IMG/VR virus record: IMGVR_UViG_3300025644_000002
Strand: one strand, 5' to 3'
DNA from: a virus
Taxonomy: Duplodnaviria > Heunggongvirae > Uroviricota > Caudoviricetes
DNA: 39,488 nt
Shown here piece by piece: positions 2 through 34,167 of the stretch. A program made the translations under genes and the position numbers. The notes beneath the pieces are model-generated. The model was not told where the DNA came from. It searched no databases and saw nothing but the letters and a program-made list of their open reading frames with translations. How positions within the stretch are numbered: the first letter of the stretch is position 1; each line of letters opens with the position of its first letter.

Positions 2-3000
2 TCCGCTCGTACCACTTGAACCGGAAGTTCCACTTGACCCGCTAGTTCCAGACGACCCGCTAGTACCACTTGTACCACTCGTACCGCTTGAACCTGAAGT
101 ACCACTCGTACCACTTGTACCGCTTGAACCGCTTGATCCTGAAGTTCCACTTGAACCGCTTGACCCGCTTGAACCACTTGATCCGGAGGTTCCGCTTGTA
201 CCGCTTGACCCGGAAGTTCCACTCGTACCGCTTGACCCGGAGGTTCCGGAAGAGCCACTTGATCCTGCTGAACCGCTTGACCCAGAAGTTCCGCTTGTAC
301 CGCTTGAACCTGAAGTTCCGCTTGAACCTGAAGTTCCTGAAGAACCGCTTGAACCTGCCGAACCGCTTGAACCTGAAGTACCACTCGTACCGCTTGATCC
401 TGAAGTACCACTCGTACCGCTTGATCCGGAAGTCCCTGAAGATCCGCTTGAACCTGCTGAACCGCTTGAACCACTCGTACCGCTTGAACCACTAGTCCCT
501 GCATCTCCTGTACGGAAATAATTTAAAACTAGACGATCTAGATTTGAGAAAGGTGATGCTGCGGAAGAATCTACGTTAGTTACTCCGATCTGCCAGTATC
601 CTGGTCCCTCGGTTATAGAATTCACTTGGAATATTAATCAGTTTTCAGGTACATAAGTCTCGCTGAGCACGATGTGACCTTTAACCGCGCTAGTAGAGTC
701 GTCGAAGGTTGCCAGTAACCCCTGTACATCTACCGCTAAAATGTCCTCATCGGAACAGATTATAACGGTAGCCGCGTTTTGAGTCCCATTGTTTAATCGT
801 AAGTCTCCAGATCCCGGATCTGCTACAGTTGTTGAGCTGTCAAAGTTGTACTGGACATGTCCGGCTGCATTTCCGGTGTTACCAGATGATCCAGACGTTC
901 CGCTTGAACCGCTTGAACCGCTTGAACCGCTTGATCCTGAAGTTCCACTTGAACCGCTTGACCCGCTTGAACCACTTGATCCGGAGGTTCCGCTTGTACC
1001 GCTTGACCCGGAAGTTCCACTCGTACCGCTTGACCCGGAGGTTCCGGAAGAGCCACTTGATCCTGCTGAACCGCTTGACCCAGAAGTTCCGCTTGTACCG
1101 CTTGAACCTGAAGTTCCGCTTGAACCTGAAGTTCCTGAAGAACCGCTTGAACCTGCCGAACCGCTTGAACCTGAAGTACCACTCGTACCGCTTGATCCTG
1201 AAGTACCACTCGTACCGCTTGATCCGGAAGTCCCTGAAGATCCGCTTGAACCTGCTGAACCGCTTGAACCACTCGTACCGCTTGAACCACTAGTCCCTGC
1301 ATCTCCTGTACGGAAATAATTTAAAACTAGACGATCTAGATTTGAGAAAGGTGATGCTGCGGAAGAATCTACGTTAGTTACTCCGATCTGCCAGTATCCT
1401 GGTCCCTCGGTTATAGAATTCACTTGGAATATTAATCAGTTTTCAGGTACATAAGTCTCGCTGAGCACGATGTGACCTTTAACCGCGCTAGTAGAGTCGT
1501 CGAAGGTTGCCAGTAACCCCTGTACATCTACCGCTAAAATGTCCTCATCGGAACAGATTATAACGGTAGCCGCGTTTTGAGTCCCATTGTTTAATCGTAA
1601 GTCTCCAGATCCCGGATCTGCTACAGTTGTTGAGCTGTCAAAGTTGTACTGGACATGTCCGGCTGCATTTCCGGTGTTACCAGATGATCCAGACGTTCCG
1701 CTTGAACCGCTTGAACCGCTTGAACCGCTTGAACCGCTTGAACCACTTGATCCGGAGGTTCCGCTCGTACCGCTTGACCCGGAAGTTCCACTCGTACCGC
1801 TTGACCCGGAGGTTCCGGAAGAGCCACTTGATCCTGCTGATCCGCTTGAACCTGAAGTTCCTGAAGTTCCGCTTGACCCGGAAGTTCCGCTTGATCCTGA
1901 TGATCCGCTTGAACCGCTTGAACCTGAAGTTCCTGAAGTTCCGCTTGATCCCGAAGTTCCGCTTGAACCGCTTGAACCTGCCGATCCACTTGAACCTGAA
2001 GTTCCTGAAGTTCCACTTGACCCGGAGGTTCCGCTAGAACCTGAAGTTCCTGAAGTTCCGCTTGATCCTGAAGTTCCTGAAGTTCCGCTTGATCCTGAAG
2101 TTCCGCTTGATCCTGAAGTTCCACTTGTACCGCTTGATCCTGAAGTACCACTCGTACCGCTTGAACCTGAGGTTCCGGAAGAACCGCTTGAACCTGCTGA
2201 ACCGCTTGACCCAGAAGTTCCGCTTGTACCTGAAGTTCCGCTTGAACCTGAAGTTCCGCTTGTACCTGAAGTTCCACTTGAGCCTGAAGTACCACTTGAA
2301 CCAGAGGTTCCGCTTGAACCGCTTGAACCTGCTGAACCGCTTGACCCAGAAGTACCACTAGTTCCGCTTGAACCTGAAGTACCACTCGTACCACTTGTAC
2401 CGCTTGACCCCGAAGTACCACTAGTACCGCTTGTACCGCTTGATCCTGAAGTTCCGGAAGAACCACTTGATCCTGCAGATCCACTTGAACCTGAAGTTCC
2501 TGAAGTTCCTGAAGTTCCGCTTGACCCGGAAGTTCCAGAAGTTCCTGAAGTTCCGCTTGATCCTGAAGTTCCAGAAGTTCCTGAAGTTCCGCTTGATCCG
2601 CTTGTTCCAGATGACCCGCTAGTACCACTCGTACCGCTAGTTCCGCTTGATCCTGAAGTTCCACTTGTACCGCTAGTTCCACTTGAGCCGCTTGTACCTG
2701 AATCCCCCGTAACCCCTTTTTCTCCAGAAGATCCTGAGGTTCCGCTCGTACCACTTGAACCGGAAGTTCCACTTGACCCGCTAGTTCCAGACGACCCGCT
2801 AGTACCACTTGTACCACTCGTACCGCTTGAACCTGAAGTACCACTCGTACCACTTGTACCGCTTGATCCTGAGGTTCCGCTTGATCCGCTTGAACCGCTT
2901 GAACCGCTTGATCCTGAAGTTCCACTTATACCGCTTGATCCTGAGGTTCCGCTAGTTCCGGAAGTTCCACTTGAACCCGAAGTTCCGCTAGTTCCGGAAG

Positions 3001-5419
3001 TTCCGCTTGAACCGGAAGTACCGCTTGAACCGGAAGTTCCTGCAGCTCCGCTTGATCCTGAAGTTCCGCTAGTTCCAACTCCTCCAGAAGACCCAGAGGT
3101 ACCGCCAGTACCGCTTGAACCTGAAGTTCCGCTAGTTCCGGAAGTTCCGCTTGAACCGCTTGTTCCAGCGTCTCCTTTCGCTCCAGAAGAGCCCGAGGTC
3201 CCACTTGACCCGCTAGATCCTGAATCCCCAATAACTCCTTTTTCTCCAGAAGATCCCGAAGTTCCACTCGTACCGCTTGATCCTGAAGTTCCTGAGGTTC
3301 CGCTTGATCCTGAAGTTCCGCTAGTTCCTGAAGTTCCACTTGAACCGCTTGAACCTGCTGAACCGCTTGAACCTGAAGTACCACTCGTACCGCTTGATCC
3401 GGAAGTGCCGCTTACACCGCTTGAACCGCTTGAACCGCTTGATCCAGAGGTACCACTCGTACCGCTAGTTCCGCTTGAACCTGAAGTTCCAGAAGTTCCT
3501 GAAGTTCCGCTTGAACCGCTAGTTCCACTTGAACCGCTTGAACCGCTTGACCCTGAGGTTCCACTTGTACCGCTAGTTCCACTTGATCCAGAAGTACCGC
3601 TTGTACCCGCAGTCCCGCTTGACCCAGAAGTACCGCTAGTACCGCTAGTCCCGCTTGACCCAGAAGTACCGCTAGTACCGCTAGTTCCGCTTGATCCTGA
3701 AGTACCGCTAATTCCTGAAGTCCCACTTGACCCTGAAGTACCGCTAATTCCTGAAGTCCCACTTGACCCTGAAGTACCACTCGTACCACTATCCCCGCTT
3801 GAGCCCGAAGTACCGCTCGTACCGCTAGTTCCACTTGACCCCGAAGTACCACTCGTACCGCTTGATCCGCTTGATCCGCTTGAACCGCTTGATCCTGCTG
3901 ATCCGCTTGAACCTGAAGTTCCACTTGTACCGCTTGATCCTGAAGTTCCGCTTAATCCTGAAGTTCCGCTTGATCCTGAAGTTCCACTTGTACCGCTTGA
4001 ACCTGACGTTCCGCTTAAACCGGAAGTACCGCTTGTGCCGCTTGAACCGCTTGAACCGCTTGATCCAGAAGTCCCGCTTGATCCGGAAGTCCCAGAAGAA
4101 CCGCTCGTACCACTCGTACCGCTTAATCCAGAAGTACCACTTGTACCTGCACCTCCTGAAGATCCGGAAGTTCCGCCTATACCGCTCGTACCACTTGACC
4201 CGGAAGTTCCGTCTATTCCGCTTGAACCGCTTGTTCCTGAAGTTCCAGCTGCTCCACTCGATCCCGAAGTTCCGCTAGTTCCGGAAGTACCACTCGTACC
4301 GCTTGATCCACTTGAACCGCTTGATCCGCTTGAACCTGAAGTACCACTCGTACCGCTTGAACCTGAAGTACCACTCGTACCGCTTGAACCGCTTGAACCG
4401 CTTGATCCACTCGAACCCGAAGTACCACTAGTACCGCTAGTTCCACTTGACCCCGAAGTACCACTCGTACCGCTTGATCCTGAGGTTCCGGAAGAACCAC
4501 TTGACCCTGAAGCTCCGGGCACCCCCGTATCTCCACTTGAACCTGAAGTTCCTGCTGCTCCGCTTGATCCTGAAGTACCGCTCGTTCCAACTCCTCCAGA
4601 AGACCCAGAAGTACCGCCAGTACCGCTTGATCCTGAAGTTCCGCTTGAACCAGAAGTTCCGCTTGAACCACTCGTTCCAGCGTCTCCTTTAGCTCCAGAA
4701 GAGCCTGAGGTTCCGCTTGATCCACTTGATCCTGAATCTCCAGTAACTCCTTTCTCTCCAGAAGATCCTGAAGTTCCACTCGTACCGCTTGATCCGGAAG
4801 TTCCGGAAGAACCGCTTGATCCTGCTGACCCGCTTGAACCAGAAGTTCCTGAAGTCCCGCTTGAACCAGAAGTTCCCGAAGTTCCGCTTGATCCTGATGA
4901 TCCGCTTGATCCTGAAGTTCCTGAAGTCCCGCTTGATCCAGAAGTACCACTCGTACCGCTTGAACCGCTTGAACCTGCTGAACCGCTTGAACCTGAAGTA
5001 CCACTCGTACCACTTGTACCACTCGTACCGCTTGATCCTGAAGTTCCGCTTGATCCTGAAGTTCCAGAAGTTCCGGAAGTCCCCGAAGATCCGCTTGAAC
5101 CTGCTGATCCGCTTGATCCAGAAGTACCGCTAGTTCCGGAAGTACCGCTAGCACCGCTAGCTCCGCTTGATCCGGAAGTACCGCTAGCACCGCTAGCTCC
5201 GCTTGAGCCAGAAGTACCTGAGGTACCTTCAGAGGCTACTCATGTACTACCTGTTCATGTTTTTAATACTTCATTAGATGAATCTCACCAAGTCTGTCCA
5301 GTTATTGGGGACGCTGGTGGTGCGGCGGATGCGTTGTGGGATTTTGCTGAAAATGTTGCATTAGCCTGTGATTGGCTATATACATCCGATATTTGTTTGG
5401 CTTTTATTTGTCCTGACAT
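2..5419 (-). CDS. Very long collagen-like (Gly-Ser/Thr-Ser)n virion fiber protein, 3'-truncated by window edge (>1800 aa, TGA=Trp)
   Basis: ATG at 5419. N-terminus PPASPITGQTW*DSSNEVLKT*TGST*V matches the common phage fiber motif P..P..G..W.D.....LK.W.G..W with TGA at the Trp positions (5285, 5255, 5240). About 1150 aa of GSS/GTS triplets follow, then two identical globular domains joined in frame through TGA at 1436 and 638. Confidence 0.8.
119..1732. repeat. Exact tandem duplication with 798-bp period (globular domain + GST linker) inside the fiber gene
   Basis: 119-934 reads identical to 917-1732 by eye. Equivalent ORF-track ends (495/1293, 638/1436) are offset by 798 nt. Confidence 0.9.
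1690..5230. repeat. Degenerate 9-bp microrepeat array (e.g. CCGCTTGAA/CCTGAAGTT) encoding GSS/GTS triplets on the minus strand
   Basis: Direct reading. A longer block (GEKGV[T/I]GDSG..GAKGDAG..GTGG..GGVG..GAAG) recurs at ~4530-4770 and ~3030-3260. Confidence 0.95.
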
Positions 5420-5433: not shown

Positions 5434-5814
5434 CTAGTTATAGTTTACGTATTCTTTTTCCTCAATAAACATAGAGTTGGTTTCGTTGTTAATTATTTTT
5501 TTTAAATTAGCTCTAGTGTCATTAGTGTAATACACTGCTCGCGCTAATTTTATAAATTCCTCATCAAACTCTTTTAATTGTTCTTTTCTACGCAGTTGGT
5601 CCTCTATATCCCATAGCTCTGCATTACAATTATAAAGATTCATATAACTTTCAGAATCCAATGAGAAATTCAATAGCTCTACAACGCTATGTTGTAAAGC
5701 CTCAAATTCTGTTTGTACATTTTTAATCTTTTCTGGGTCAGTAAAATTCTCAGTTTTTAATTGAAGAATAGATAGCTTATCTATTAATTCTCCATTAGAT
5801 ATTTCAATTTTCAT
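5434..5814 (-). CDS. DUF6165-like protein
   Basis: Motifs IEISNGELIDKLSILQLK, NAELWDIED and FIKLARAVYYTNDTR resemble DUF6165, which is typically found beside glycosyltransferases. Recognised by eye. Confidence 0.7.
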   Translation of the reverse strand: MKIEISNGELIDKLSILQLKTENFTDPEKIKNVQTEFEALQHSVVELLNFSLDSESYMNLYNCNAELWDIEDQLRRKEQLKEFDEEFIKLARAVYYTNDTRANLKKIINNETNSMFIEEKEYVNYN

Positions 5815-8800
5815 AAATAGTATTAATTACCTCCTCTGGTAAAATACTTGAAGAGCACTCGAAATTCTTTCCTCTAGGACATCAATTTCAATCGCCTCTA
5901 TCAAATTTTTCCTCATTAAAACAATTATGACATACTGTGTCTTTATGCATTCTAACACATTTAAATTCATACCAAGGCGCTGTAAAGCCGGAAATCATTA
6001 ATACTGGCACCTTTAACGCTCAAGCTAGCCAAGCTAATCCTGAACTCAATCCCATAAAGAATGTAGCATGTTTCAATATACGCATTGTTTCAGTAAGATT
6101 CAAGTTAGTTTTGTCGATTATGCCATTTAATTCACTTTCTTCTTTACTTATAACTACTACTTTATAACCTTTTGAATTTAAATAGTCTACCACAGTTTGC
6201 CATCCTCCAGGATAATTTCAATATTTACACTGAGCTGTGGAGTGGGCCGCTAGACATACATAAGGACCGTCAATATCAGTATGTCCTTTAATCTTAGCCA
6301 TTTGCGGTAATAGTTCTTCATACTCGAGACCTAAAATATCACAAGCAACCTCTTGTAAAGGAATTGAAAATGGATTTCTTTTATGAAGGAAATCATCATC
6401 TTCTCTAATACCTACTACATAGCTTGCGTATAAATTGTCAACAGTAGTTCCCGGACTAATAAACTTTAATTCTGGATAATCAAGCAAATGATTATGGAAT
6501 GTAGACACTATTACTTCGCAATTATGTTTTTCTTTAAACTTTTGAACATAGGGTATTCAAGCCAAAGTATCTCCTAGAGAGCTGCTATCTAACGCAATTA
6601 ATACTCGTTTATTATCACAATTAAAAGCGTATTGGTTCACTAATTCTTCACCTTTATGTACCGTAATCATATAATTGGTAAAATATACTCTACTTGCTTT
6701 AATTCAGCTATTAGCAGATACTCCAATTTTCTCATATACAACCTCTTCTAAATCTTGATCAATAAATTTTATATCATAAGTATGGTCAGATTCTGATCCT
6801 CACAATTCTACAAATGGTCCATCTACAAAATTATGGTCAACTGATATATTTCCATTTAATATAGAAGTTGATTCCCCGTAATAAAGATAATCTAAATAAC
6901 CAGGCAATTCTGTTTCCTCACTCTCATAAACTTCAAGTAATTTTCTTTTTTCTTCTAAAGGATATATTTTAGTTTTATCTCCTATCGAGAAAGTATATAA
7001 ATTTCTAGGACTAATTTCTATCATAGCATCATGAAGAGATTTATGCTGTACATGCCCGTACTCTCCGTTAGAATTATGAGTTACTATTTTTTTATAATAT
7101 CTTCTAGAAGTTTCACCTAATATAAATTTTCTTAAATATTTTTCATCAAATTTATCATATAAAGAGTCAGGAAAATCTCATAAAGCATATTCTCCTACTC
7201 CTAAAGTTTCCATAGCTTTGCTAAACTCATACGCTCTAATTGGATTACTTTTTCCCGTTACTGATATAACTTTTCAATCTTCAGGGTCTTTTAATAAGTC
7301 GTATCCTCCAAAAATAAGTTCGTCGTCCGGGTGAGCTACTATCATCAACTTATTAGGAAGTTTAGTATCAGCCTTCACGACAAATGTGTTATATTTTTCT
7401 ATTCTTTTTTTGTAATCTTTTGTAACTAGCTCATTCTTGAATAATTTACCATCTTTATATATTTGATATTTATTTAGTTTAGAACTTAATCCCAAATTAT
7501 GATGAAAAAATTTAGAACCTGAAAAATCTAAATTAATTTCCTTACCATTATATTTTAACAAATATTTAGAATCATCAGTAATATTTGGTTTACCTAATAC
7601 TAACCTAAATTCTTTCTTATATACAAATCCATATATATTAAGAGCTCCATCAGTAATTAAATTCTTAACTCCATAATCCTTTTCTACATCTATATATTTT
7701 CTTATTTTTAGATTAGACTCTCCCTCTGTTTTAATAATAAGATCATAAATCCAAGGCTCTAGATACAGTCTAGAATCCCCATCTCTTGAAGAAGAAGCCT
7801 TAAAATATTGCTGGGAATTATTTATATTATTGAACGCCGTAAAATTTTTAGAAATTGAAAAAAATGTCATAGCAAAAGAATCCTCATCTGTATCATAGTA
7901 GTAAAATGAGCCATGAGCGCCTTTACCTAAATCTTCTTTATGAATTTTAAATAAATCCTTTTGCGGAATCATATCGTAGTTTAAAAAATGAATTATGTCT
8001 ATATCTCGTGATTTACAGTATACTTCTGCATTTTTAAATAATGAAAATACTGCATAAGAATGATTTGGAGTTTCATGATTTACAGATTTAACAAAATAAT
8101 CTTCGTTATCAAATCAAAAAGTAACCGGGATTTCTATAATTTCATTGTTACTATCATATACATAATGTTCTACAGATTTTTGTATTTCTAAACTAACTGG
8201 GTAGTGTGTTACTAACAAAATATCATATCCGAATTCCTTAATTCGCTTTATACATTTTTTTAAAACATCTATTTTTTCTTTGGTGTTAGTATAGGCTAAA
8301 ATAGCCACTACTTCTTTTAAAGGTTTATTATCTTCTATAGCTTGTAATATATCATTTCTTGTTAGATCCACCATTTCTACTTCTTTTTCTAACCTAATTA
8401 TATTATTTTCTATTTCAGATAAAGTTTTTTCGTCTAGTTCCTTAGTTATTTCCACACCATTATGAGAATCTAAAAGACTAATATTCTTAACATCTTTTAA
8501 ATTTCCTAAATTAATCACCACCACTTTACTATCTGTTTCAAATTTAATATGCGCCTCTCTCTCCAATACATCTCTAGTATCCTCATAGCAAGTGTATTTA
8601 AATAATACTTCATTATCATCTAATCTTTCTCTAAAAATTAGGGCCAATAAATTTTTATTTTTTTCAAATAAATTAACTTTATAAGTTGTCAAGCTTATGG
8701 AATCCTTTATTGTATATTGAGAAGCTTCTGTTTTTTCATCTAATTTTATAATATCATCTCAGATATTTTGCATTCTAAAACGCTCATAAAGTCACTTCTC

Positions 8801-11707
8801 CAATTGTCTTTCTGAAAGCTCTAAGTATTCTTGTAAAGAATCTATTCCCTCAAATCCTTTAAATTTAGTGGTAACTGAAAACATAAGAACTCTAACATTT
8901 TCAAAAGTTATATTGTCTTCGTTTGATTGACTTGTAATAAAACATCCTGAACTATTAGTGGTCTTTAATAGAGTTCTAAATTTAATGAAAGGATTGTATT
9001 TTAACAAAACATCATAATTTAAAAAATGTATAGTATCAACCTCTAAGTTTTTACAGTAATTAAAGGCATTTTTAAATAATGTAAACGCTGCATAAGAATG
9101 ATTTTTATTTTTACTATAAAAAGTTTCAAAATAAACTCCAGAAAGATCTCCTCAAAAAAATTCAGGAGTTTCAAATATTTCATTATTTGGATCATACACA
9201 TAGTGATCTACTTCATCTTTTATCTCCTGAGGAACATCATAGTGGGTTGATAATAATATATCGTATCCAAACCCCTTAATTTGCGCTATGCGTTCTTTTA
9301 ATAATTTTTCTTTACTAGCGGTATCAGTATAAGAGCTTATAACTACAATCTCTTTCTTAATTTTTTTAAGAAACCTCAATACTTTTGAAGCAGTATTAGG
9401 ATTTTTGTTATCGATTTCTGGATGATACGCTAGTATATTAGCTTCGCTTTTTGGGTAAATCTCATCCATTTCTTTGGGCCAATTCTCCATAAAAAACATA
9501 GAAGAATAATTTAAGGAGGCTATATGCCCCTGGCTAAAGCCCATAACATTGTCATGTGGAGAAATTCAAGTTATAGGAAGAAACTCGTCATATTTATATT
9601 TTCAAAATAACATGTTAATAATTCGTTCTTCAGAGCATGCCGTGTCATCTACAAAAATTTTACCATCTGAATCTGTATTACTAATGTTCCTTATATAAGC
9701 CTCTTCTCGGAGAACTTCTTCAAAAAAACGTTGAGATCTTTTATCATACATAAATATACCTGTGGCCACTGTGTGACCGCTATATGGTAAATTACCGGTA
9801 TCTCACCCGTATAGTTCGCAAAGCTCTTCTCCATGCTTCTTTTCTCTTCGCCCATCCCCATCCTCTCTAAAATGTAATAAAGAGGGGTATCTATATCTCA
9901 TACATAGTGGATAATGTTTTAGTTTATCTACATAAGTATTAAGATGGTCTATATTTTCCGACACTACCATATCTCCATCTAAAAAAATATAATAATCAAA
10001 TTCATCATTTTTTGTAGTTTCTAATGCAGCCGCTATTCTAGCAAAATAGTTTTGGCTATCTACATGACCTACCTGGTTTACTTTGCCTCCAGAATATTCT
10101 ATTTTTTTATTTATTACTCTCGAATATGAAAAGGGTACTTCACAATTAAATCCATAAACAATTATTGGGAGTTTTGAAAATTCTAATAAACTTTTTACAC
10201 ACGCCTCTACATAAGGCATATATTTGAGATCACCGCCTACTACATACGCTCCTAATTTTGCAGCAGTACTTTGTATTTTATTTGATACCTTATCAAGCAA
10301 AAATTGATCTTCGCCATTTATCCTAATTTTTGTATCTTTTGAAATAGGAAAACTAGACGCCCAAGAATCTTCATTTGATAATTCTGCTTTATATACTTCT
10401 TTATTATCTTCAAGAAATTCAACAGTATATTGCTTTTTTATAGGTCCATTTATTTTTATTAATGGAGTATTATTACTTTTTATAGCTGTAATATAATTTC
10501 CAAAATCTTTATAATAATTTTCATTTACATTATTATTTAATATATCAACAGCAGTTAATGCCGCATTCTGTCAACTAAATTTATTGACTCTAGGAGCTTT
10601 AAGAAGTGCCTGGCCCTTATTTATATTTCTATTTTCATAAGTGCTTCTCATTATTTCCTTTAAGTGGTCGAAGTCAGGCTCATCTCATAATCCTACTCCT
10701 TCTGTAGCAAACATAAAAGGCTTCATAGGTCTTTGATCTATAGTCCTTACTTGTTGGGAGATTCCTCCCGCAAAATCTAATTGTGCCGGATGGCTTGAGC
10801 ATATGGTGGGAATTCCAGAAGCAATAGCTTCTATTAAGGGTAAGTTCCACCCTTCCGATCTAGCGCAAGATACAAAACAATCTCCATATTTAAGATAATT
10901 AATGTAATCTTTTCTAGGTAAAAAAGGTATAATTTTAATATTTGGATGTTCTATTTTATGAAAAGCTAAACGTTCTTTAGTAGAATTCATTCCATCCACC
11001 GAGTGGGGATTCTCGATAGAACACACCAGATCGATAGGTTCATTTGCACCAAATTCTTCACTAAAAGCTCTTAAAATTTCTGTTGTAGATTTTCTATGAT
11101 CCCATCTGCCAAATAATACAAACTTATATCGGTCGTCTTTAAACTCGTCTGGTCTTTTTCCAGAACTAACGTTAAAGATTGAGGTGTCCACAGCCTCCGG
11201 AACTACAAATACTCTATCAGCAGGGTATCCTTGGGCGATACTACAGTCGCGTTGCCATTTAGTGGGTACTCATAACATTTCATTTCGTAATAGTGCTTCA
11301 AAAAACTCATTTGGATATAAAGTGCTTTCTCAGACATTATAGCCTATGTTGTAGCCGGGATAACTATTTTCGAATCAGTAATGGTGGTTTGTTTCTGATA
11401 AAATTATGTTAACAGGATTTTCTGGAGGAAGAGTTCCGACTCCGTTATACATCTCAAAATCTATACCTTTGTACACCCCACTATCCATACCTTCGTCACA
11501 AGTCTGCCTAATGAACATTTCTTTATCAATGTCTGTTAGATATGTTTCCTTTTCATGAGGACGATCAGATACTCCATCTCAGGAAGGCCCTACAGAAAAA
11601 TTTCTTAATTTAACTGGTAAGTAGTTATTTAAAGCTCTAAAAAATCCACGAGCATGAGCGGCATAGCCAGTTTGCCCGACAAAGGAAGTGTGACCATATA
11701 TATTCAT
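5795..11707 (-). CDS. ~1970-aa multi-domain glycosyltransferase: GT4 + DxD GT-A + two repeated domains + PIG-L deacetylase + Aah/TibC-like heptosyltransferase (TGA=Trp)
   Basis: Seven track ORFs share one frame and are joined only by TGA (about 23 by manual count; no TAA/TAG until 5795). Motifs with * = TGA: YNV*EST, L*VPTKWQ, SEGWNLPLIEA, KFS*QNAA (GT4); YIFLDGD (DxD); VAHPDDE..THNSNGEYGHVQH (PIG-L); SSLGDTLA*IPY..HNC..STF and GLSSGLAWLA*AL..ISGF..C.NC (heptosyltransferase/GT9-like). Confidence 0.85.
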
Positions 11708-11713
11708 TTAGTA

Positions 11714-13731: not shown

Positions 13732-13740
13732 TTGAATCTC

Positions 13741-14088: not shown

Positions 14089-14093
14089 ATCTA

Positions 14094-20072: not shown

Positions 20073-20077
20073 AACTA

Positions 20078-20106
20078 AATATGGCTCCTTATCCTTTAAT
20101 TGTCAA
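20078..20106 (-). promoter_or_regulatory. Sigma70-type promoter TTGACA-N17-CATATT
   Basis: Read directly; ATG 20072 is 5 nt after the -10 box. An AAGGAG also lies inside the spacer. Confidence 0.55.
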
Positions 20107-20124
20107 GTAATTTTTTATTTTTTT

Positions 20125-23479: not shown

Positions 23480-23480
23480 A

Positions 23481-23837: not shown

Positions 23838-23903
23838 ACTCTTCAAAATATGAGAGTACCCTTTTTCATAGTACTTTATTTTCTGTTTAATGTCATCCTA
23901 TGG

Positions 23904-24197
23904 TTAAAACAATTTTGATAAAAGATGTCTATCTATAGCAAGCTTTGCTTCCCATCTTTCCAGGCGCGCATCTAATTTATTATCAAATACTTCTGCAACT
24001 TTTTCTTTAAATTCTGCAAATGTTTCTGGTTTCCATTCCTCTGCACACTTAATAAATATTTTTTCAAAATCGCTATCTGTGTCCATAGGTATATCTGCTT
24101 TCTTTTCAAAAAGGTCCATTTTTTCTATTTTATCAAAAAACTCTGCAGCTAATGCATCTTTTTCTGGGTTTCTATCATATAGAATTATTTGGGTCAT
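23904..24197 (-). CDS. Hypothetical protein
   Basis: Intact 97-aa ORF. Confidence 0.6.
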   Translation of the reverse strand: MTQIILYDRNPEKDALAAEFFDKIEKMDLFEKKADIPMDTDSDFEKIFIKCAEEWKPETFAEFKEKVAEVFDNKLDARLERWEAKLAIDRHLLSKLF

Positions 24198-24423
24198 TAT
24201 CTTTTTCCTCCATGGTGGATAAATAGTAATGTAACGTAAAACTATCTGGAATTGATTTTAGTTCCGCTATCTTAGTTAAATCTTCGTCGTATATAGTCAA
24301 AGGTTCATCCGCTAAAGTTGCAGCTTCTTCGTAGGTAAATCCTAAGTCTTCCGCAGCTTGTTTAATAAACTCTGCCATTTCAATATGTTTGTCACTTCCA
24401 GAGTGTTCTATTAATATGTACAT
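24172..24423 (-). CDS. Hypothetical protein
   Basis: Ends TGA-TAG; preceded by a near-consensus promoter. Confidence 0.6.
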
Positions 24424-24428
24424 ACTTT

Positions 24429-24457
24429 ATTATAAGTTATTTATTTAAATTAGTCAA
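24429..24457 (-). promoter_or_regulatory. Sigma70-type promoter TTGACT-N17-TATAAT, probably leaderless
   Basis: Read directly; ATG 24423 is 5 nt after the -10 box. Confidence 0.75.
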
Positions 24458-24464
24458 GTTTTTA

Positions 24465-25067
24465 CTACTTGTATCGTTTAGCTCAATTCTTCGCCATCTC
24501 TATGCGATTTGCTGCTGCACTATTTTTTTCTTTCTGTAGGAGTATAGTATTTTTCTTATCTGAAATTTTAGCTTTACTTATACTATTCTTCAGTTTATAA
24601 GCCTTAAGATTTTTTGGTATAAACTTTGCTGTTTTCTTAAGTAAAAAAGGTTGTGACGCTTTAACTGCTGCCTTATTCTGTAATTTAATAGTGGTAATAT
24701 CTGCCTTTTGTGCCTTTGTAGCTATATTTCCTGGAAGAAGTCTTTTATTTTGAGTAGCCGCAGTTACCCCTGAAAATTGTAATTGAGATTTAGTTAGGCC
24801 TTCAGCAGTTTTTATACTATTCATAAGTTCAAGATCTTGTGTTCGGTCAAATCTTCCAGCTTTTCTTTTTCGTAGATTAGTATTATTTTTGTGAATTAGA
24901 GAGTCAGCCTTTAATTCTAGTCGTGTTGGGTTTCTGTATTTCTGCCTTTTAGGATCAAGTACGTTTCACAAATTTTTAGTATTTTGTAATTTGGACTTTG
25001 TTAGAGCCTTGTTTATATGTCTTGTAGAGATTGCTAGTTTCTCAAATACTATTGTTGCTTTATCCAT
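24465..25067 (-). CDS. Basic DKA-leader protein (200 aa, 2 TGA)
   Basis: Starts MDKATIVFEKLA; TAATG-coupled to the upstream gene. Confidence 0.7.
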
Positions 25068-25675
25068 TAGGCTAATCCCACTTCATCACCATTCTTAATA
25101 GTTTTCATCATGCCTTTTACATGTCTAAGTTTCCCTTCTTGTTTTTTTCTATATAATTTATTTCCTGCAAGCTCTGTCTTCTTATCAAGTATGTTTGTTT
25201 TTGTAGCAGAACGGTCTCATACTCTACCAAGTCTTAGAATTTTTTCAGTATTCTTAGTAGTATGGTTATCGTAGTTTCTTCAATTTTTTTCTGATTGTCT
25301 AAATGCTAAGCTACGAGAATTGTCAACACTCTTATATACTCTATTAAGGCGTTTTAACCCTCTTGATCCTGCATACTTACGAAGTATTGCTGCGCCTGTA
25401 AGAGCCCCCGCCACCACCACTCCAACAGCGTTTAATACTGCTCTTCGCCTATTCTTTTTGAACTGCTGCTTACTAACTTTAGGATATGTATGGGTCGATC
25501 TATATTGCTTATCATATGCGTGTAGCTTTTTACCATGAATTTTTTTGTATTTTTCATAGCCAGCATTATAGTCGTCGTTCCATTGTTTAACAGTCATACC
25601 TTCAGGAATCAGTCCTAAACTTTCTACGGATCTACCCGCTAATTTTTCAAATACTATTGTTGCTTTATCTTTCAT
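25067..25675 (-). CDS. Basic DKA-leader protein with a hydrophobic Gly/Ala helix (202 aa, 2 TGA)
   Basis: Starts MKDKATIVFEKLA; read-through ends exactly at a TAATG junction. Confidence 0.7.
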
Positions 25676-25679
25676 ATTT

Positions 25680-26408
25680 TTATCCATATACCTTTTTAAG
25701 TAAGTTACTATCTGTTATTTTATTTTTTTTGTACTTAGACATGCGAACTGTTCATTTATCATATGTAGACTTTTCTGAAGAGGGTCTATTAAAAAAATCA
25801 TGTTTAGCCTGTCCTGATAAGGTTTTCATATGCTTTCTAGCTCTATACTTTTTTTTACTTCCCTTACTAAATATCTTGCCAAGTTCAGTGGATCTGTTTT
25901 TTGCTATATCTGGAGATAAAAAATCAATTACTTTATTTCCAGCAACATTTGAAGAGTGAAGATCTTGCACGGTTTTACCAATTATTTTTCTAGAATCTTT
26001 ACGTGCACTTCTTATAAGTTTTACGTGCTCGTCAAATGTTTTTTCACTCGGAACACTATATTGTTGGTATGTTATTTTCTTTTTTTTATCGGCTCTGTGA
26101 AACTTAGCAAAATGTGGTGATTTATTCAGTTTTTTTGAAACTTGTATTTTAGTATTAAAGGCTTTACGGCTAAACATTGGACTAGTCGTGTCATGAATTT
26201 TGGCCACTTCTACTCCATGTTTCGGAGAGGTTCTTAGTTGTACGAGCGCCTCATTGCCTCGACCAGCCTTTCTTAAAGTTCTTGGTTTCAACTGTAAGCT
26301 CTGTGAAATACGTTTTACGTTGTTAAGCGACAATGTTCCACGATTAAAGGCCCTTACTAACGCTGTTTTAGCTATTTTTTCAAATATGTAAGTTGCTTTA
26401 TCTTTCAT
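25680..26408 (-). CDS. DKA-leader protein with protein-kinase-like fold (242 aa, 1 TGA)
   Basis: AGRGNEALV (Gly loop), VAK, DLHSSN and VIDF motifs. Confidence 0.65.
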
Positions 26409-27142
26409 TAATTTGTCTCCAAAATTTTAGATTTTTTTGTAGTCCCTGGAACAAGCATCTTGCGCGCTCTTAATCCAGAATTATATTGAGCTCCTGCTGC
26501 TACCCCTCCTATAGCTCCTGCCGCTAATATTCCAGAAGATATTAAAGTTATACCTCGGTTTAACCCGTGTCTTACTGATTTCAGTATCTTTGGATTAGCT
26601 CTTGCGCTAGTAAATGTTTCCTTAATTACATCCTTAAAGTTAGTTTTTGATTTTATAGTATCCCCTCGTTTATTTTTTCATAATACCTTGCCTTTTTCTG
26701 AAGGACCTTTTGTTTTCTCTAAATCCTTTATAGACAGGTTTTTTAATGTATCCAGAATAACAGAAAAATCTTTTTTAGATACTTTAGATTTAGTTTTTAA
26801 TGCTTTATTAATTTTACTACGCGCATGAAGAGACTGCCCTAATACTTTATATGGTTTAAAAGCTTCAGAAGCTACTGCATGGGCTTTAGCCTTTATGCCG
26901 GGTCCGGCCTGTCTAGAGGCGCTTGGCCCTTTTACCATAGTAGACAACACTGCTGGAGTAATTACAGAGCTCCCTATAAAACCTCCTGCAACCGCTGTAC
27001 CCATATGCCTTTTATGATTTTCTTTATTATTAATAGCGCTTTCAAATGTCCAACGTCCGGTAGGCTCTACTCCTGCGAAAAAATCTCTGGTAGCTGAAGA
27101 GTCTTTTCCTAATTTTTCAAATATATACTGTGCTTTATCCAT
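26408..27142 (-). CDS. DKA-leader protein with Gly/Ala-rich hydrophobic segments (244 aa, 1 TGA)
   Basis: Starts MDKAQYIFEKLG; read-through at 26678 ends at a TAATG junction. Confidence 0.7.
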
Positions 27143-28425
27143 TATATTATCTTATTCTTTTTTGCAGTGGTGAACGCTTTAAAAGCAGTTGTAGCTAAAT
27201 TAGCTATCCCAGATCTAGTTCCCCCTACTGCTTGTTGCCTATAAGTTTTTAACGCCTTAACTCTAAGAGCGTCGTCTGCAGGTACTCCAGCGTTATCCCA
27301 AGCATCGATTTCCATTTTAAATCTATTTGTTTTTTCAGGCTTGCCCACAAGATTATGAAAAACATCTGTTGCTTTTCCTCTTGAATGTTTTCCTAATTTT
27401 TTTGGAGAAGTAAGACCCTTATTCTTAAAATCCGCGATATGTCCTAGTTCGTGATCTATAATTTTTTGAGAAGACCCTTTTGATCCAATTATAACTGCGG
27501 GGCCGTGTTTACCCATAGTAGCTGCCGCGTTAGGTTGCTTTAATATAATTTTATTCATTTGATGAGATATAAAACCTCCTGGTCCTCTACCTACATTTTT
27601 CTTAACTCATTTTTTAGAACTGGCTTTATCGTGAATAACGCTTACACTGTCTCCCATTTTAGAGTTTACATACCCGGGAACGTCCTTCATAAATGGTTGT
27701 TTTGCCATTTCCTTTTGAGCGGCCTTACCCGCCTTCACCTGTGAATGTACGGTTTTAAGATGGTAACCTTTCGCTCCTACGGCTAACCCTGTAGCCACGT
27801 TATCTACTTTACTTCAATTAATTTTCTTATCTATAGCTTTTACGGTAGCGGTAGCTTTTGCCACTCCTTCATTATTTTTTATATTTGTTACTCCGCTCCT
27901 GATTTTAGCTTTTAAATCCTGAACTTCTGCATATTTCTTAAATATTAATGTTACTTTATCTTGCATTGCTAATTTCTCCGTGTTTATTCCTAAATCTATT
28001 AAGTTCTTTCTAGCTGCTGGGCTTTGAGTTCTCACCCAGGTGCCGAAACTAGGAAAATCCTTTGTATTAGCTTGGTTAGCTTTTGAGGTCGCATACCAAT
28101 CAGTTACTGCTTCTAATTTATTTTTTCTTTCAGAGACCAAACCAAGTTTGTGGGCATGATGTGGGTTTCGTTTGTAGTGAAGCGCTGCTGCTTCTCTAAA
28201 TTTTCTAGTTACTTCTGGATCCTTCGTACCAGTAATACCTTTAGGGCCCTGCCAATAGGCTACATAAGGCTTCCACTCGCTTGGGCGGAACTTAGAGAGG
28301 TCATGAGCTAAAAGCGTCCCGTATGGGGCTCCTATAGTCCTGCCGGGCCTAATCATAAAGGCCTTATGCCTAAGAAGACGTTTACCATATTGATAGTGGT
28401 CTGATATAGAGGGTTTATTTTGCAC
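27142..28425 (-). CDS. Fusion of a DUF5662/HD-like domain and a HExxH metallopeptidase-like domain (427 aa, 2 TGA)
   Basis: AHDLSKF..E..HYKRNPHH..EAVTDW, then internal MQDKVTLIFKKYA, then DHELGH..EIDAW. Three track ORFs join in frame via TGA at 27814 and 27607. Confidence 0.6.
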
Positions 28426-28429
28426 TAGT

Positions 28430-28882
28430 TTACCAATTCATCTCTAATTCTGGATATTTGTCTTTTATTTTCTTTTTTAAACTAGCATCAGTAAAATTAA
28501 TTAGTTTTTCACCAAACCTTTTTTGAATGGGCATGTCTTTTGTATAATATGTTGACATATGCATATCACCGCTTTCTCCCCAATCCGGATTAGCTCTGTG
28601 AAATATAAGTTGATGGTTTTTAGTTTGTACCACCCCTTTATCTCCAATATTCATTTTAGTTTTGACTATATCTATTTCTGGTAATACTTTCTCTATTATA
28701 TCTTTTCCTTCATTCCTATTAGACGTAACTGACTTCATTCGTGTTACGCGGTCCAATTTTGGTTTAAGGCGGGTATGGCTCTTTACCTGGCTAATAACGT
28801 CATCCCAACTTTGTAACGAGGGTACTCTCGCCATTCCAAACTTATAAAAATATTTATTATATACTTGCGCAGCTTTATCCAT
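28430..28882 (-). CDS. DKA-leader hypothetical protein
   Basis: Starts MDKAAQVYNKY. Confidence 0.65.
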   Translation of the reverse strand: MDKAAQVYNKYFYKFGMARVPSLQSWDDVISQVKSHTRLKPKLDRVTRMKSVTSNRNEGKDIIEKVLPEIDIVKTKMNIGDKGVVQTKNHQLIFHRANPDWGESGDMHMSTYYTKDMPIQKRFGEKLINFTDASLKKKIKDKYPELEMNW

Positions 28883-30275
28883 CACTTCCTACTTCCTTTA
28901 ATACTTTAGTAAAATCATTTACAAGATTTTGTTTATTTTTTGATAGCAATTCTAGATACTCATCAGTTCCCGCATGTTGTCTACGTAAGAATCTAGTTTT
29001 ACGTGGCTTATTAATATATGTTTGAATCGTTATATTTCGATTTTGTTTTTTTAAATGTTCATGAGACTTGAATCTATTTACTCTACCTTTTACTTGTTTT
29101 AGAGTAGGTTCATTCCAATGAGGCTCTAATATTTGAAGAAGCCTTGTTCCTTTTAAATCAAGCCCTTCTGCTCCCGCTCCAGATATAAGTAAGTGTTTAA
29201 TCTTGCCAGAATTATATTTCTTTACTACATCAGCTTTTTCTAGGTCAGTCTGTCTTCCTGTAAAGGTGCCAAAAGGTATCTTAGTTCTCTTAAGTCTTTT
29301 GGCCATTGGGTCCACTCCGTGACCTAAGTATGTAGAGTAAGTTACTCCACGATATTTTTTATTAGCTTTATGCCTCTTAGAAATTTCTGACATCGCTCTA
29401 TTTAGTTTAGGAGCATCGGCCTCTGTAGCGCTTAAATTGTATTTGCCCGGACGATTAGATACTTGGCGTGCCGCTCCTAAGAATGCATTCATTCGAGATG
29501 ATTCTGTTTTAGAAGGAGCTATTCCATGCCTAATTTTATACTTTAAATCAGGATCTTCTTTCATAACCATTTTATAAGCTGCTTGTTGTTTTTTAGACAT
29601 TGTAGTTTCTATACGCTCATTTATAACTGAAGGATAATTTTTATCTTTAGTTGGGGCATGATAATCTACTTTGCCTCGTAGAGCTTTTCTAAGAACTCCT
29701 AAATTTTTCCCACGTTTTACCGTTCCAGGCTTAATACCCTTAAATACTCGTGCAAAAAATCCAGGTTTTTGTTTAGTCTCTTGAATAAACGCCTGGTTAA
29801 ATCTTTTTTTATCTCTACCTATATTAATATTTAAACCCCGTAAAAGCGGTATTAATTCTGCAGGTTCATTTCTAATAGGAGTTCCTGATAGAAGCAGGGT
29901 TTTCTTACCCTTTATTTTATCTGGATAGTGTGAACGTTGGGACTCTGTTCTACCCATTCTGTGGGCTTCATCGAATACAACTACGTCTTTTGAAACATTT
30001 TTTGTTGGAGGTTTATTATAAGAATAATAAGAACCTTCCCCTTTTATTTTATGCTTAAGCCTCTCTTTAGGAAAATTATGTTTTAAAGCTGCAGGGCCTA
30101 TAACTGTTACAGGTTTCTTAAACTTTTCACCTGCACGTAATGCCGTATAGGTTTTACCAGAACCTAAGCCGTGATATAACAACATTTGATCAGTCTTCTC
30201 AAGCTTCTTTAATACTCTAGCTTGGTGGGGCTGATCGGCAGCATACTTATTAAATACGTGTAGGGCTTTATCCAT
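28875..30275 (-). CDS. SF2 (SNF2/DEAH-like) helicase/ATPase with DKA leader
   Basis: GLGSGKT, DEAH, SGTP, GAEGLDL, EPHWN and QVKGRVNR motifs; starts MDKALHVFNKYA. Confidence 0.85.
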   Translation of the reverse strand: MDKALHVFNKYAADQPHQARVLKKLEKTDQMLLYHGLGSGKTYTALRAGEKFKKPVTVIGPAALKHNFPKERLKHKIKGEGSYYSYNKPPTKNVSKDVVVFDEAHRMGRTESQRSHYPDKIKGKKTLLLSGTPIRNEPAELIPLLRGLNINIGRDKKRFNQAFIQETKQKPGFFARVFKGIKPGTVKRGKNLGVLRKALRGKVDYHAPTKDKNYPSVINERIETTMSKKQQAAYKMVMKEDPDLKYKIRHGIAPSKTESSRMNAFLGAARQVSNRPGKYNLSATEADAPKLNRAMSEISKRHKANKKYRGVTYSTYLGHGVDPMAKRLKRTKIPFGTFTGRQTDLEKADVVKKYNSGKIKHLLISGAGAEGLDLKGTRLLQILEPHWNEPTLKQVKGRVNRFKSHEHLKKQNRNITIQTYINKPRKTRFLRRQHAGTDEYLELLSKNKQNLVNDFTKVLKEVGSDG

Positions 30276-30276
30276 T

Positions 30277-30999
30277 TTATTTCTTACCGTATATTGCTTT
30301 AGGTATATTAGAATTTCGGGTCATACCGCTCTCTAATAACTTACTTCCAAAATCTATAGCTTGGTACTTAATACCTTCTATAGCTGCAGCTGGTTTTTTC
30401 TTTAAAGACAGAGCCTTCCACACTTCACTCTTAACCGCTTTTTTAAATCCCTCAGTCTGTTTCCCGACAGTGGTTGTTTGTAGAGCTTTGCGCCCCCTTC
30501 TACCTGCGGGAAGGAAGTCAATTATTTTTCCACCCTGAATGTTTCCTGGGTTTCTAACTACGTCGGCCATAGGTACACCTCTCAGTGTAGCTTGTGCCTT
30601 TGTTAGAAGAGTTTGTTTTATAGAGCTCCCAATTCCGGCAGTTCCTGGACTATACTCGTGGAAAGTGATGGGTCGTTTAGGATCTTTTCCATAATACTTG
30701 GCAAAATTGCCTTTGCCTGACATTGTTTTAAAAGTACGAACTTTTTCTTTTAATACCTCTTTACTCGAAAGCCCTCCCTTAGGGTCATAGAGTTTAGCAA
30801 CTTGAAGTTGGTGTTTTGCGGAAGTCCTTAACTGTGCCAACCCTTCAACTCCCTGGCCCAAATCTTTTAAATATCTAGACTTAAGTCCTAAAGTTTGAGT
30901 AGCTTTTCCCGCTGCTTCTGCAGAGATCTTTCTAGCCTTAACCGCTCTTATCATCGCAGTTGAAGCTCATTTTTCAAATATGTATTGTGCTTTATTCAT
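30277..30999 (-). CDS. DKA-leader kinase-like protein, paralog of 25680-26408 (240 aa, 1 TGA)
   Basis: MNKAQYIFEK*AS; LGQGVEG, VAK, DVVRNPGN and KIIDF motifs. Confidence 0.65.
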
Positions 31000-31541
31000 T
31001 ATGCTGTTCCTTTTATAAATGTGTGATATCTGTTAATTGCGCCTTTTACTGTAGGAGCTGTATTAAAGGCTCGATGAGTATTAGTTACATATATAGTTCT
31101 ACCATCAGGTTGTACCGATTTCCATACAGCCGGAGTTGCTTGGCGTTTGCCATCTCTACCAAAATGAAAATTCCAAACTGCTTTGCTTTTCATCACTAAC
31201 GCGCGCTCTTCTGGAGTTAGAGGTTTTTTATGTTTTTGAAGTTTCTTAAACTTGATTTTACAAGAGGTATATTTAGCATACTTCTCAAATACCTGAGCTA
31301 CCTTCTTAAAAGAGGTTAAGATCCCATTATAACCTTCCCTAGTAACGTTAGGGAGGGGTTTCCTAGTAAACACTTCTCTACTCATAAATGGTATAGATTT
31401 ATTAGCTATTAAGGCTCTATATTTAGCTTTGTTCTTTCGTCCCTGCAAAAAGATATTGTCTCATCCAGCTTTTTGTTGAATGAGGGTTGGATCGAATCCT
31501 CGATCTATCTTAAATTTTGGTACTGGAAAGAATTTAGGCAT
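30999..31541 (-). CDS. Basic hypothetical protein with internal KVAQVFEKYA motif (180 aa, 1 TGA)
   Basis: Track ORF extends to ATG 31541 through one TGA. Confidence 0.6.
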
Positions 31542-31756
31542 TGACTATTTTTGAGAAAATGTATTCTGCTTTTTTGTATAACTGAGCATAATCTTTATAT
31601 TTCTTTCCAGGATTTGCTTTTTTTTCATTTAGCAAAATTTGCAATTGCGTTGGGTCCGTAGAGACCTCTCATTACATTAAAACCCTTTTTACCCTCAATC
31701 ATGTGAGTCAGATGTTTTACTTCGGTAACTAAGTCTTTTACTGCTTGTTTTTTCAT
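31534..31756 (-). CDS. Small protein with an apparent frameshift at an A8 run
   Basis: Frame 1 stops at 31595. The shifted frame continues KKANPGKKYKDYAQLYKKAEYIFSKIVNA, which contains the family motif. Confidence 0.45.
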
Positions 31757-31774
31757 TTAATTATTTCCCACTCT

Positions 31775-33814
31775 TTAAGATGCGTAGTCTATATCATTAA
31801 TTAATCTAGACGTTGTTAAAGCCTCTGGTACATATTTTTTTAGCTGTTTACTGGTAAGATCTTGACCGCCTCTTAATCCTTTAACTTTCAAATATTTTCG
31901 CTGAGCTTTATCGCTCCCTACGGCAGCTGCTATCATTGTTCCAAACGCTGCACCCGCTACAGCTCCTACTGCAACATTTTTTCCTAAACCTTTCATTTTT
32001 CTTAATACTGAAAGCGGTTCTGGGTTTACAGCTCAATAATTACTAGGAGGATTTTTACCTAACCATTTTGTACCTGATCAAGCTCCTAATGCTGCTCCGA
32101 CCCCCGTTGTTTTAGGTATTGTGGCAGTCCTATATTGTTTACTTCTTTCCTTTTTTGAGCTCGCCGAATACTCTGGAGCGTTTTCTTTATTCCATTTGCC
32201 AGAAGGACTTTCCTGTAAGGCTCTAGCATGCGCTCGCGCTTGTAGCTCTTCTCTTATTCTAGACAACTCTAGATCATGTGCTAAATCTATATAAGGATAC
32301 TTTTTACCTAATTTACTCATTACAGCTTCTGCTTTTTTATTTAAAGACATAGCTCCGCCTACTAAGGTAGCTGCTGCTGTAGGAGTTCCTACTACTGTTC
32401 CTACTACTTTAGCTGTTTCGATTTTAATCTCTTTTTCTACATTTTTTAATAGTTCCGTATACTTAGGATGATCCTTATGAAGTTTAGAGGTCACAGTTTT
32501 TAATTTATTTATATAATCTGCTTTACTTTGTTTAAGGCCCTTTAGACGGCTACCTTTTACTAGTTCCAAATATCTAGCAGATACCGATCCAGTTTTACTA
32601 GCGCGCCCTATCCCTATTCCTGCGAGAGTTGTTCCTGCGCCAAACCCTAGAAGTTTAGCATTTAAACTTATTCCTTTCTTTGCCGCAGGTTGCTCAGTTT
32701 TTGCCGGAGCAGTTGAAGTTGTAGCCTTTGTAGATTTTGTAGATTTCGAAGTAGTTGAAGCTGCTGACGCTTTCGAAGATTTCGAAGTATTCGCAGCGGT
32801 TCCTTTACCTCCAGAAGAGGTCCATCGGGCATCTACGGGTGCCAGACTTTTATTTTTCACTACTCTTTTTGAAGTTCCTTTAACAACCGCATCTGAGGTT
32901 GCTTTCGCTTCCTGGGCAATTGTTATGGCCTTTAATTTTAATGCCTTCGCATTAATTGCAACTTTTAAAAATACATATTCCGCTTTTTTATCTATAACTG
33001 CGTCTGCTAATACAGCTGCTGCGCCTGTACCCGCCGCACCTCGTGTAGCGTATACTTTTACAATTTCTTTACCAGCCTCGTTAGCGTCAAGCTCTTTCCC
33101 GCTCTTTTTAGCTGCATCTATCTTAGACTTCATCTTATTGCCAGAAAATAACTCTTTAGTTCTTTTTAATACCTTCTGCCCTGTCTCAGCCACGCTTGCA
33201 GCAGTCGGTCCTGCAGTTTTATTAAATAATAGTTCTGCTTTAGAAAACTCTCCTTGTTTCTTCATATTTGTACTCCTATGGTATCCTATGCCAGAACCTA
33301 TAGCACTTCCTGCTAATAACGCGGCTGCTGGTACTTTGAATGTTTTAAATTTTGTTAAGGTGCCTTTTATTTTATTAGTAAATAATTGAAAAGCTTTTGA
33401 TGGTAAATCTGGTTGTTTTATAAAATTTTTAGCTAACTGCTTTTGATTTTTTAAATAGGCCTTTGTAACATCGCTTATGTCGTTGAATGTTTTTCCTTTT
33501 AAATCTTCTATGTTTTTTTTATTACTTGCAAAAAATTGTCTAGTAAACAGTGCCGCCCCAGGTAAAGACCCTAACATAGACCCAGTAAGGGCTGCTTGAG
33601 CTGCTTGCACCTTTCTCCCTTCCGGAGCTAATGACGCCGCTGCTGCACTTTGTAAGGGCGCGCCAGGCACCAACGTAGAAATAGCACTTGATGCTCCTAC
33701 TAAAGAGGCGTTCATAAGTTTTCTAAATTTAGTACGCCTTTTTGGTTGTGGAATCGACGGGACTGCTGAGGCTCCTAACCCTACTACAGTTCCTAATGGT
33801 GATTGAATATCCAT
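31775..33814 (-). CDS. Large basic Gly/Ala-rich protein with three internal KAE..F.K motifs, polyprotein/ejection-protein-like (679 aa, 2 TGA)
   Basis: SKAELLFNKTA, KKAEYVFLKVA and KKAEAVMSKLG. Joins ORF 31775-31996 in frame via TGA. Confidence 0.65.
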
Positions 33815-33822
33815 TTTAACTC

Positions 33823-34167
33823 CTATTTATATTTTTTGTCTAGATAGTCTTTAGTAACTCCGTAGGTACCAAATCCTATAGCTAACGTTGGAATGTTACG
33901 TAACAATTTTAATCCTAAACCTTTATACAAAGATTTAAAAGCCTTTAATTTACCTATTGGTTTCGTAAGTTTAGGAGGTTTATTAAAGTCAACATTTTGA
34001 GAGGGAGGAGCCGTCTGACGACGAACTTGTAGGGTATCTAAGGGGTGAAGCAATAAACTGGTAACAGTCCCAGATAATGCTCCTGGGGCTAAATCTAATA
34101 ATAGACGATTAGGTTTACGTTTATTACGCTCAGCGTATTTCATAAACACGTGTTGTGCTTTATCCAT
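33823..34167 (-). CDS. Single-repeat mitochondrial-carrier (Solcar/SLC25)-like membrane protein with DKA leader (114 aa)
   Basis: GALSGTVTSLLLHPLDTLQVRRQ and SLYKGLGLKLLRNIPTLAIGFGTYGVTKDYL match both halves of one carrier repeat; starts MDKAQHVFMKYA. Confidence 0.75.
   Translation of the reverse strand: MDKAQHVFMKYAERNKRKPNRLLLDLAPGALSGTVTSLLLHPLDTLQVRRQTAPPSQNVDFNKPPKLTKPIGKLKAFKSLYKGLGLKLLRNIPTLAIGFGTYGVTKDYLDKKYK

Follow-up and report, generated by a model that had tools for sequence, protein, structure and literature searches.

The question raised by this locus is how a long series of phage late genes is to be read when their frames are interrupted, again and again, by the triplet TGA. 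The window, that is, the whole stretch of 39,488 nucleotides analysed here, belongs to a tailed virus (Caudoviricetes; IMG/VR virus record IMGVR_UViG_3300025644_000002) and corresponds to G000:C1:52706-92193, reverse strand, of the linear record. Its minus strand from 2 to 34209 is the late/virion module, which comprises head, packaging, fibre and glycosylation genes. The best explanation, to which we give a probability of about 0.88 on the strength of sequence comparisons, is that UGA would be translated as tryptophan (Trp) in this module and that the early genes would keep the standard code, the passage from one to the other being made by a suppressor switch of the type described by Borges et al. 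(bioRxiv 10.1101/2021.08.26.457843).

The first step concerns the reading frames themselves. Between 5.4 and 34.2 kb, genetic code 11 leaves on the minus strand a patchwork of short open reading frames (ORFs) lying in the same frame. When TGA is taken as a sense codon, positions 2-34209 resolve into 34 minus-strand ORFs, all of them ending at TAA or TAG, which contain 69 in-frame TGA and 59 TGG codons, occupy 98.6% of the span and are separated by a median gap of 1 nt (25 nt or less in 29 of the 33 gaps). The original prediction held that every break between the fragments on this strand is a TGA and that read-through restores genes ending at TAA or TAG, often at TAATG stop/start overlaps. It is borne out: TGA alone interrupts the late frames, TAA or TAG never, and the three overlaps that it named (25067, 26408 and 27142) are joined by three others at 12879, 19110 and 30999. 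The comparison of coding densities proposed along with it gave the same answer, since the coverage of 5400-34200 by stop-to-stop ORFs of at least 100 aa rises from 77% under code 11 to 98% with TGA as sense, and reaches 79% and 82% in the controls where TAG or TAA is made sense. Over the whole record, greedy ORF coverage goes from 82% to 93%, the two controls giving 84% and 86%. The coding density is thus gained only with TGA as a sense codon. Annotation under code 11 shatters the module into dozens of false fragments and hides the 1970-aa glycosyltransferase, the terminase and most of the tail and fibre genes, so that records of this kind need block-wise gene calling under code 4. The genes obtained in this way, all on the minus strand, are the following:

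2-5419, minus strand: collagen-like tail-fibre gene with a G-S/T-S repeat (Pfam Collagen, E=7e-14)
5434-5814, minus strand: DUF6165 protein (PF19662, E=5e-14), no TGA
5795-11707, minus strand: 1970-aa multidomain glycosyltransferase (Pfam), 23 in-frame TGA and 9 TGG
11714-14229, minus strand: five small late genes, 13 in-frame TGA
14177-16816, minus strand: head core, no TGA, with the major head protein, a cement/decoration-like protein and three acidic scaffold-like proteins
14177-15100, minus strand: major head protein (PHROG, E=3e-9)
16818-18539, minus strand: head maturation protease-like protein of 573 aa, 1 TGA
18547-20072, minus strand: two head-module genes, no TGA, conserved in the loci of 45 relatives
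20125-21663, minus strand: terminase large subunit of 512 aa (Pfam GpA_ATPase), TGA at residues 208, 238 and 384
21648-23846, minus strand: four late genes, 11 in-frame TGA, most of them at positions that are Trp in relatives
23904-34209, minus strand: thirteen late genes, 13 in-frame TGA

The second step is the identity of the amino acid inserted at TGA, for which an X was written at each TGA to keep the alignments free of any bias from the query. The 1970-aa protein consists, in order, of a GT4 domain, two repeated domains without assignment, a PIG-L deacetylase and a BAHT-type GT9 heptosyltransferase. In the C-terminal part formed by PIG-L and GT9, Trp is found in 80-100% of 120 homologs at six of the ten TGA sites, against a background of 3%; the sites with Trp in the GT9 region are residues 1668, 1717, 1830, 1896, 1940 and 1942, and many of the homologs of this part are named autotransporter strand-loop-strand O-heptosyltransferase. 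The GT4 domain has Trp at four of its six TGA sites (residues 43, 126, 146 and 379; 110-120 of about 120 homologs) and Phe or Tyr at the other two. Three motifs that had been singled out as conserved Trp positions behave as expected: Trp is present in 117 of 120 homologs at V-TGA-EST and in 100 of 101 at FS-TGA, both in GT4, and in 108 (Phe in 18) at LA-TGA-IPY of the heptosyltransferase. Among 150 representative terminases, Trp is the commonest residue at two of the three TGA sites (105 and 63 sequences), and the third is occupied by Phe, Tyr or Trp. Taking the terminase and the two glycosyltransferase domains together, Trp dominates at 12 of the 19 TGA sites, and Gly occurs at none of them.

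The phage relatives give the same picture. Stop-to-stop coverage on both strands saturates on their loci and is a poor discriminator, and tblastn tallies were used instead. When 28 TGA sites from 12 genes of the window are pooled over 46 related-phage loci (some 580 alignments), the residues opposite TGA are Trp 308 times, Tyr 58, Leu 41, Phe 40, an in-frame stop 29, Gly twice and Cys never, a profile which is the same as that seen at the window's own TGG positions. The in-frame stops of the relatives fall on X or Trp positions of the window, and in one relative the terminase gene call stops exactly at the position of TGA-208. Among the small late genes, the sites of 11714-12109 and 12097-12879 are Trp in relatives and those of 12879-13367 mostly Tyr or Phe. 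A 121-aa protein (23481-23846) had been presented as a LigD-PE domain with a conserved S-TGA: the Trp is indeed found in five of six relatives, and the label goes without support, Pfam giving no LigD match and the PDB sequence search nothing usable. For the N-terminal W.D..LK.W.G..W motif of the fibre, the search of related DNA returned no homolog. The Trp content of the late genes is 0.56 TGG per 100 codons and becomes 1.22 when TGA is added, the early genes having 1.44. All these alignments support the meaning Trp, that of code 4, for TGA in the late module. That TGA might stand for Gly, as in code 25, or for selenocysteine is hardly credible. Code-25 phages do exist, and those of Absconditabacteria and Gracilibacteria have Gly opposite TGA; in this phage, the most frequent residue at most sites is Trp or another aromatic one, Gly accounts for two of the pooled alignments and Cys for none, and 69 sites in 34 genes are far above selenoprotein usage. 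The choice of Trp over Gly and selenocysteine made in the original prediction therefore holds, the homologs showing neither Gly nor random residues opposite TGA.

Such a reading presupposes that the TGA codons are real. Of the 51 TGA sites of 5795-23846, 39 are covered, without a single difference, by the contigs of an independent DNA run of 2012 made from a different sample. The contigs of two RNA libraries have no difference over 13 TGA sites, although such contigs may include DNA and mask variants present in a minority. One substitution is listed in 18 kb, and it does not fall on a TGA. These data show that the TGA codons truly exist in the DNA of several independent marine samples, and their presence in independent DNA runs and in RNA contigs argues against sequencing error or editing. 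The explanation that they are sequencing errors, marks of decaying pseudogenes or sites of UGA-to-UGG RNA editing found nothing in its favour and accordingly deserves next to no credence, the more so as the frames are broken by TGA only.

The third step is the distribution of TGA between early and late genes. Over the whole record, the late blocks contain 152 TGA for 128 TGG, whereas the early/replication blocks contain 10 interior TGA for 352 TGG (p=3e-55). The blocks with in-frame TGA and the early features of the window are:

34-38 kb, record plus strand: block with in-frame TGA
58-103 kb, record plus strand: block with in-frame TGA
143.5-164 kb, record plus strand: block with in-frame TGA
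119-130 kb and one ORF at 143 kb, record minus strand: small blocks with in-frame TGA
34302-34496, window plus strand: small Trp-rich early ORF with 5 TGG, whose first stop is TGA
34862-34934, window plus strand: tRNA-Trp(CCA), first in the early unit, at the early/late divergence; the only Trp tRNA of the record
34956-39087, window plus strand: ten further early ORFs

Of the eleven early ORFs on the plus strand of the window, which hold 24 TGG in all and none of which has an interior TGA, two stop at TGA; one of these, the ORF 36865-37140, has a TAA two codons further on. In the early ORFs at large, the TGA codons sit in the last 1-9% or the first 4% of the read-through ORF; about ten ORFs, including the two of the window, have TGA within the last 1-9%. 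These TGA codons are real stops, or lie upstream of the true start. In the early blocks of the record, the ORFs ending at TGA are followed by a second stop, TAA or TAG, at a distance of one to about thirteen codons, which may serve as a back-up after the code switch. The genome is therefore not uniformly code 4 but carries late-block recoding in an otherwise standard-code genome, and the "code 4" of the original prediction stands for the meaning of TGA in the late module and not for the genome as a whole, given the early genes of the window without interior TGA, some of which end at TGA.

It is on this distribution that another explanation mainly founders, according to which Trp is already the meaning of UGA in the host, in the manner of Mycoplasma or Spiroplasma, and the phage follows it with no code switch at all. 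TGA is rare as a stop everywhere, and no suppressor tRNA, release factor or Trp-tRNA synthetase (TrpRS) of phage origin was detected in the record, as such a host would allow. The native code-4 organisms and their phages share with this phage the reading of UGA as Trp, but they use TGA as sense genome-wide and never as a stop; here TGA is neither sense in all gene classes nor excluded from stops, its use being block-wise, with the early blocks at 10 to 352 and some ten early ORFs in which TGA is placed as a real stop. Moreover, a recoded relative of this phage has its own tRNA(UCA), and Borges et al. saw a large proportion of recoded genes in no phages other than the host-matched ones of code 25. 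A host of altered code is in our view very improbable.

Our preferred model is thus a switch set in motion by the phage. The host would use the standard code, in which the early genes would be translated, UGA still serving as an occasional stop. Early in infection, the phage would supply a suppressor tRNA(UCA) charged with Trp, which would outcompete release factor 2, and only then would the late genes containing TGA be translated in full, with Trp at each UGA. This late-gene recoding of TGA to Trp is a known form of phage code switching, already described by Borges et al. (10.1101/2021.08.26.457843) for the TGA-recoded code-4 phages of the Agate and Jade clades. Three defining features of that type, the gain in coding density, Trp in the homologs and the concentration in late genes, are found here. 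Further likenesses are structural/late genes with TGA as Trp beside replication/early genes compatible with the standard code, a low GC content, the rarity of TGA as a stop, close relatives with the standard code and a suppressor tRNA that often goes undetected, Borges et al. (10.1101/2021.08.26.457843) having found one in only 35% of their code-4 genomes. The differences are that the Agate and Jade phages come from the gut and this one from the sea, unrelated by its terminase to cultured phages, that the RF1 and TrpRS code-change genes of Jade phages have no match in this record (the accessory RF1 and TrpRS are optional and occur in two Jade phages; 10.1101/2021.08.26.457843), and that this window is without lysis genes. 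Late-gene TGA-to-Trp recoding is hereby extended from the surveyed gut phages to a phage present in marine metagenomes of several studies and years.

The relatives bring the tRNA which the model calls for. They were found in viral_contigs with a four-sequence terminase alignment, a search of the same collection with the single terminase protein having returned no relatives and a first alignment having proved too diverse. Recoding is patchy among them, and the closest ones look standard-code. One relative, G004, is a complete genome of 210 kb, recoded in blocks, whose major head protein and terminase are respectively 66% and 52% identical to those of the window. It carries a tRNA(UCA) of 98 nt at 65786-65883 (L080:5786-5883), with an A1-U72/G73 acceptor of the Trp type, an encoded CCA and a long variable arm whose loop repeats the Trp anticodon loop U-CCA-AA. 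With Infernal it scores no more than 24 bits and would therefore escape standard screens. This tRNA lies 1.4 kb downstream of a TGA-rich gene of 2588 aa, and the two genes upstream of that gene match the ORFs preceding the last one of our record (G000), more strongly than the 2588-aa gene matches that last ORF.

Several points weigh against our model, to which the reservation made above on the RNA-library contigs belongs. There is no tRNA with a UCA anticodon in the 164-kb record according to ARAGORN, Infernal and a relaxed structural scan, which does recover the tRNA(UCA) of G004. Neither an RF-1 family protein (PF00472) nor a TrpRS (PF00579) is matched in the record. The nearest cultured phage terminase is at most 28% identical. 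Finally, the only match of the 2588-aa gene in G000 is weak (49 residues, E=2e-6) and falls in the ORF that closes the record on the right. It must be considered, on the other hand, that the record stops within a collagen-like repeat, a typical place for an assembly break, and this end, together with the synteny with G004, makes it most likely that the decoder tRNA of this genome would lie just beyond the end of the record. A search of viral_contigs with the exact 44-nt pattern of the right end, aimed at extending the record, gave no match.

The tRNA genes of the record number 12 by ARAGORN, with 3 further Infernal matches. The tRNA-Leu with a 2168-nt intron that ARAGORN proposes when introns are allowed spans three ORFs and is an artefact. 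Outside the window, three tRNA-like genes (G000:C1:3603-3674, 3680-3749 and 8566-8633) have normal acceptor and T arms, over-extended anticodon stems and loops of 4-6 nt; such stems and loops preclude a normal reading of codons. At G000:C1:33590-33661, a fourth tRNA-like element has AUU in the place of an anticodon.

The tRNA-Trp(CCA) at 34862-34934 invites a different explanation, in which no dedicated suppressor is needed and UGA is read by the near-cognate tRNA-Trp(CCA), boosted by the phage copy. Being the sole Trp tRNA of the record and sited at the early/late divergence, it is well placed for such a role, and the head-core genes, whose products are presumably the most abundant, avoid TGA as if its decoding were inefficient. 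CCA-anticodon variants of tRNA-Trp able to read UGA are known, namely Hirsh G24A, A9C and those with a 4-bp anticodon stem (PMC13092985), the latter, with 27:43 unpaired, being that of Blastocrithidia and Ca. Zinderia (NAR 2026, PMC13092985), and the phage resembles these systems in having a CCA Trp tRNA encoded beside a block of genes with UGA as Trp. However, the phage tRNA is canonical: it keeps A9, a U11-G24 wobble pair and a 5-bp anticodon stem with C27-G43, and therefore none of the enabling features G24A, A9C or 4-bp stem, and over-expression of the wild-type 5-bp tRNA-Trp(CCA) in E. coli did not raise UGA read-through (PMC13092985). In addition, the 23 TGA codons of the 1970-aa gene would need a near-complete suppression, and the relative G004 has a UCA tRNA. 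Decoding by the near-cognate tRNA is thus improbable, and we retain the suppressor tRNA(UCA) as the predicted decoder.

The avoidance of TGA by the head core qualifies the original prediction in another respect, since the recoding said to run throughout the late module does concern that module but leaves the head core almost untouched. From 14177 to 20072 there is 1 TGA for 10 TGG, against 68 for 49 in the rest of the late module (Fisher p=0.003), and in the fibre, glycosyltransferase and minor virion genes TGA makes up more than half of the Trp codons. One may tentatively wonder whether TGA does more in the late module than lock late genes on or off, and throttles their translation by degrees, an idea which we hold to be rather unlikely. 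If suppression were incomplete, the density of TGA would set the timing and the relative amounts of the virion components. The opposition of a TGA-free head core and TGA-rich minor virion genes offers in any case a handle on suppression efficiency and regulation.

The record itself is a single linear sequence of 163,945 bp with 36% GC and a CheckV completeness of 77%. Its sequence is found in marine/seawater metagenomes of several studies from 2012 to 2019, with up to 99% of the sampled words, and its source is an uncultured marine jumbo-phage lineage. It is also contained in two marine metatranscriptome libraries, in which the contig depth is about 10-74 over 14162-18387 (major-head, scaffold and protease genes), with a value of about 73 over the head genes, and about 12 or less in most other bins, the DNA run being fairly flat at about 4-12. 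This depth of the RNA contigs hints at late-gene expression in situ and is not usable as a ranking.

Some features of the late genes deserve mention besides their codons. In the head core, the cement/decoration-like protein has a weak Pfam Phage_cement match (E=0.029, below the cut-off). Many of the homologous terminases of the relatives (as in G004:193423-196092) have 860-1450 aa, with a match split into two or three stretches, which suggests insertions of the intein type; the 512-aa terminase of the window has none. Among the thirteen genes of 23904-34209, many of which share an N-terminal MDKA..F.K.A leader, are those of a DUF5662 protein and of an SNF2 helicase (28875-30275), the latter free of TGA, and the gene 24172-24423 (minus strand) ends with a TGA immediately followed by TAG. 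A common leader, approximately M(D/N)KA...[FVY]..K[LIY]A, opens at least 8 successive late proteins of the minus strand between 24465 and 34209, that of the SNF2 helicase included; internal copies exist in 27142-28425 and 30999-31541, and in 30277-30999 a TGA occupies the L/I/Y position of the motif. This leader, encoded near the gene of the prohead protease, could serve to target proteins to the capsid or act as a propeptide.

At the other end of the module, the fusion of GT4, PIG-L and GT9 and the DUF6165 gene lie immediately upstream of the collagen-like fibre, which exceeds 1800 aa, and DUF6165 and GT9 are fused in some homologs; no usable result came from the PDB sequence search with the GT4 domain. 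Such a gene order hints at a glycosylation, by the phage, of its own fibre, which is rich in Ser and Thr. The fibre gene runs beyond the window and encodes 1894 aa in the record, with 5 in-frame TGA, of which 3 belong to the N-terminal W-rich motif. Between about 300 and 2100 (minus strand), a non-collagen domain of the fibre occurs twice; the two copies, 266 residues apart, look identical and both have a TGA at the same position (PEN-TGA-LIF), and they are either a recent internal duplication or an effect of the assembly.

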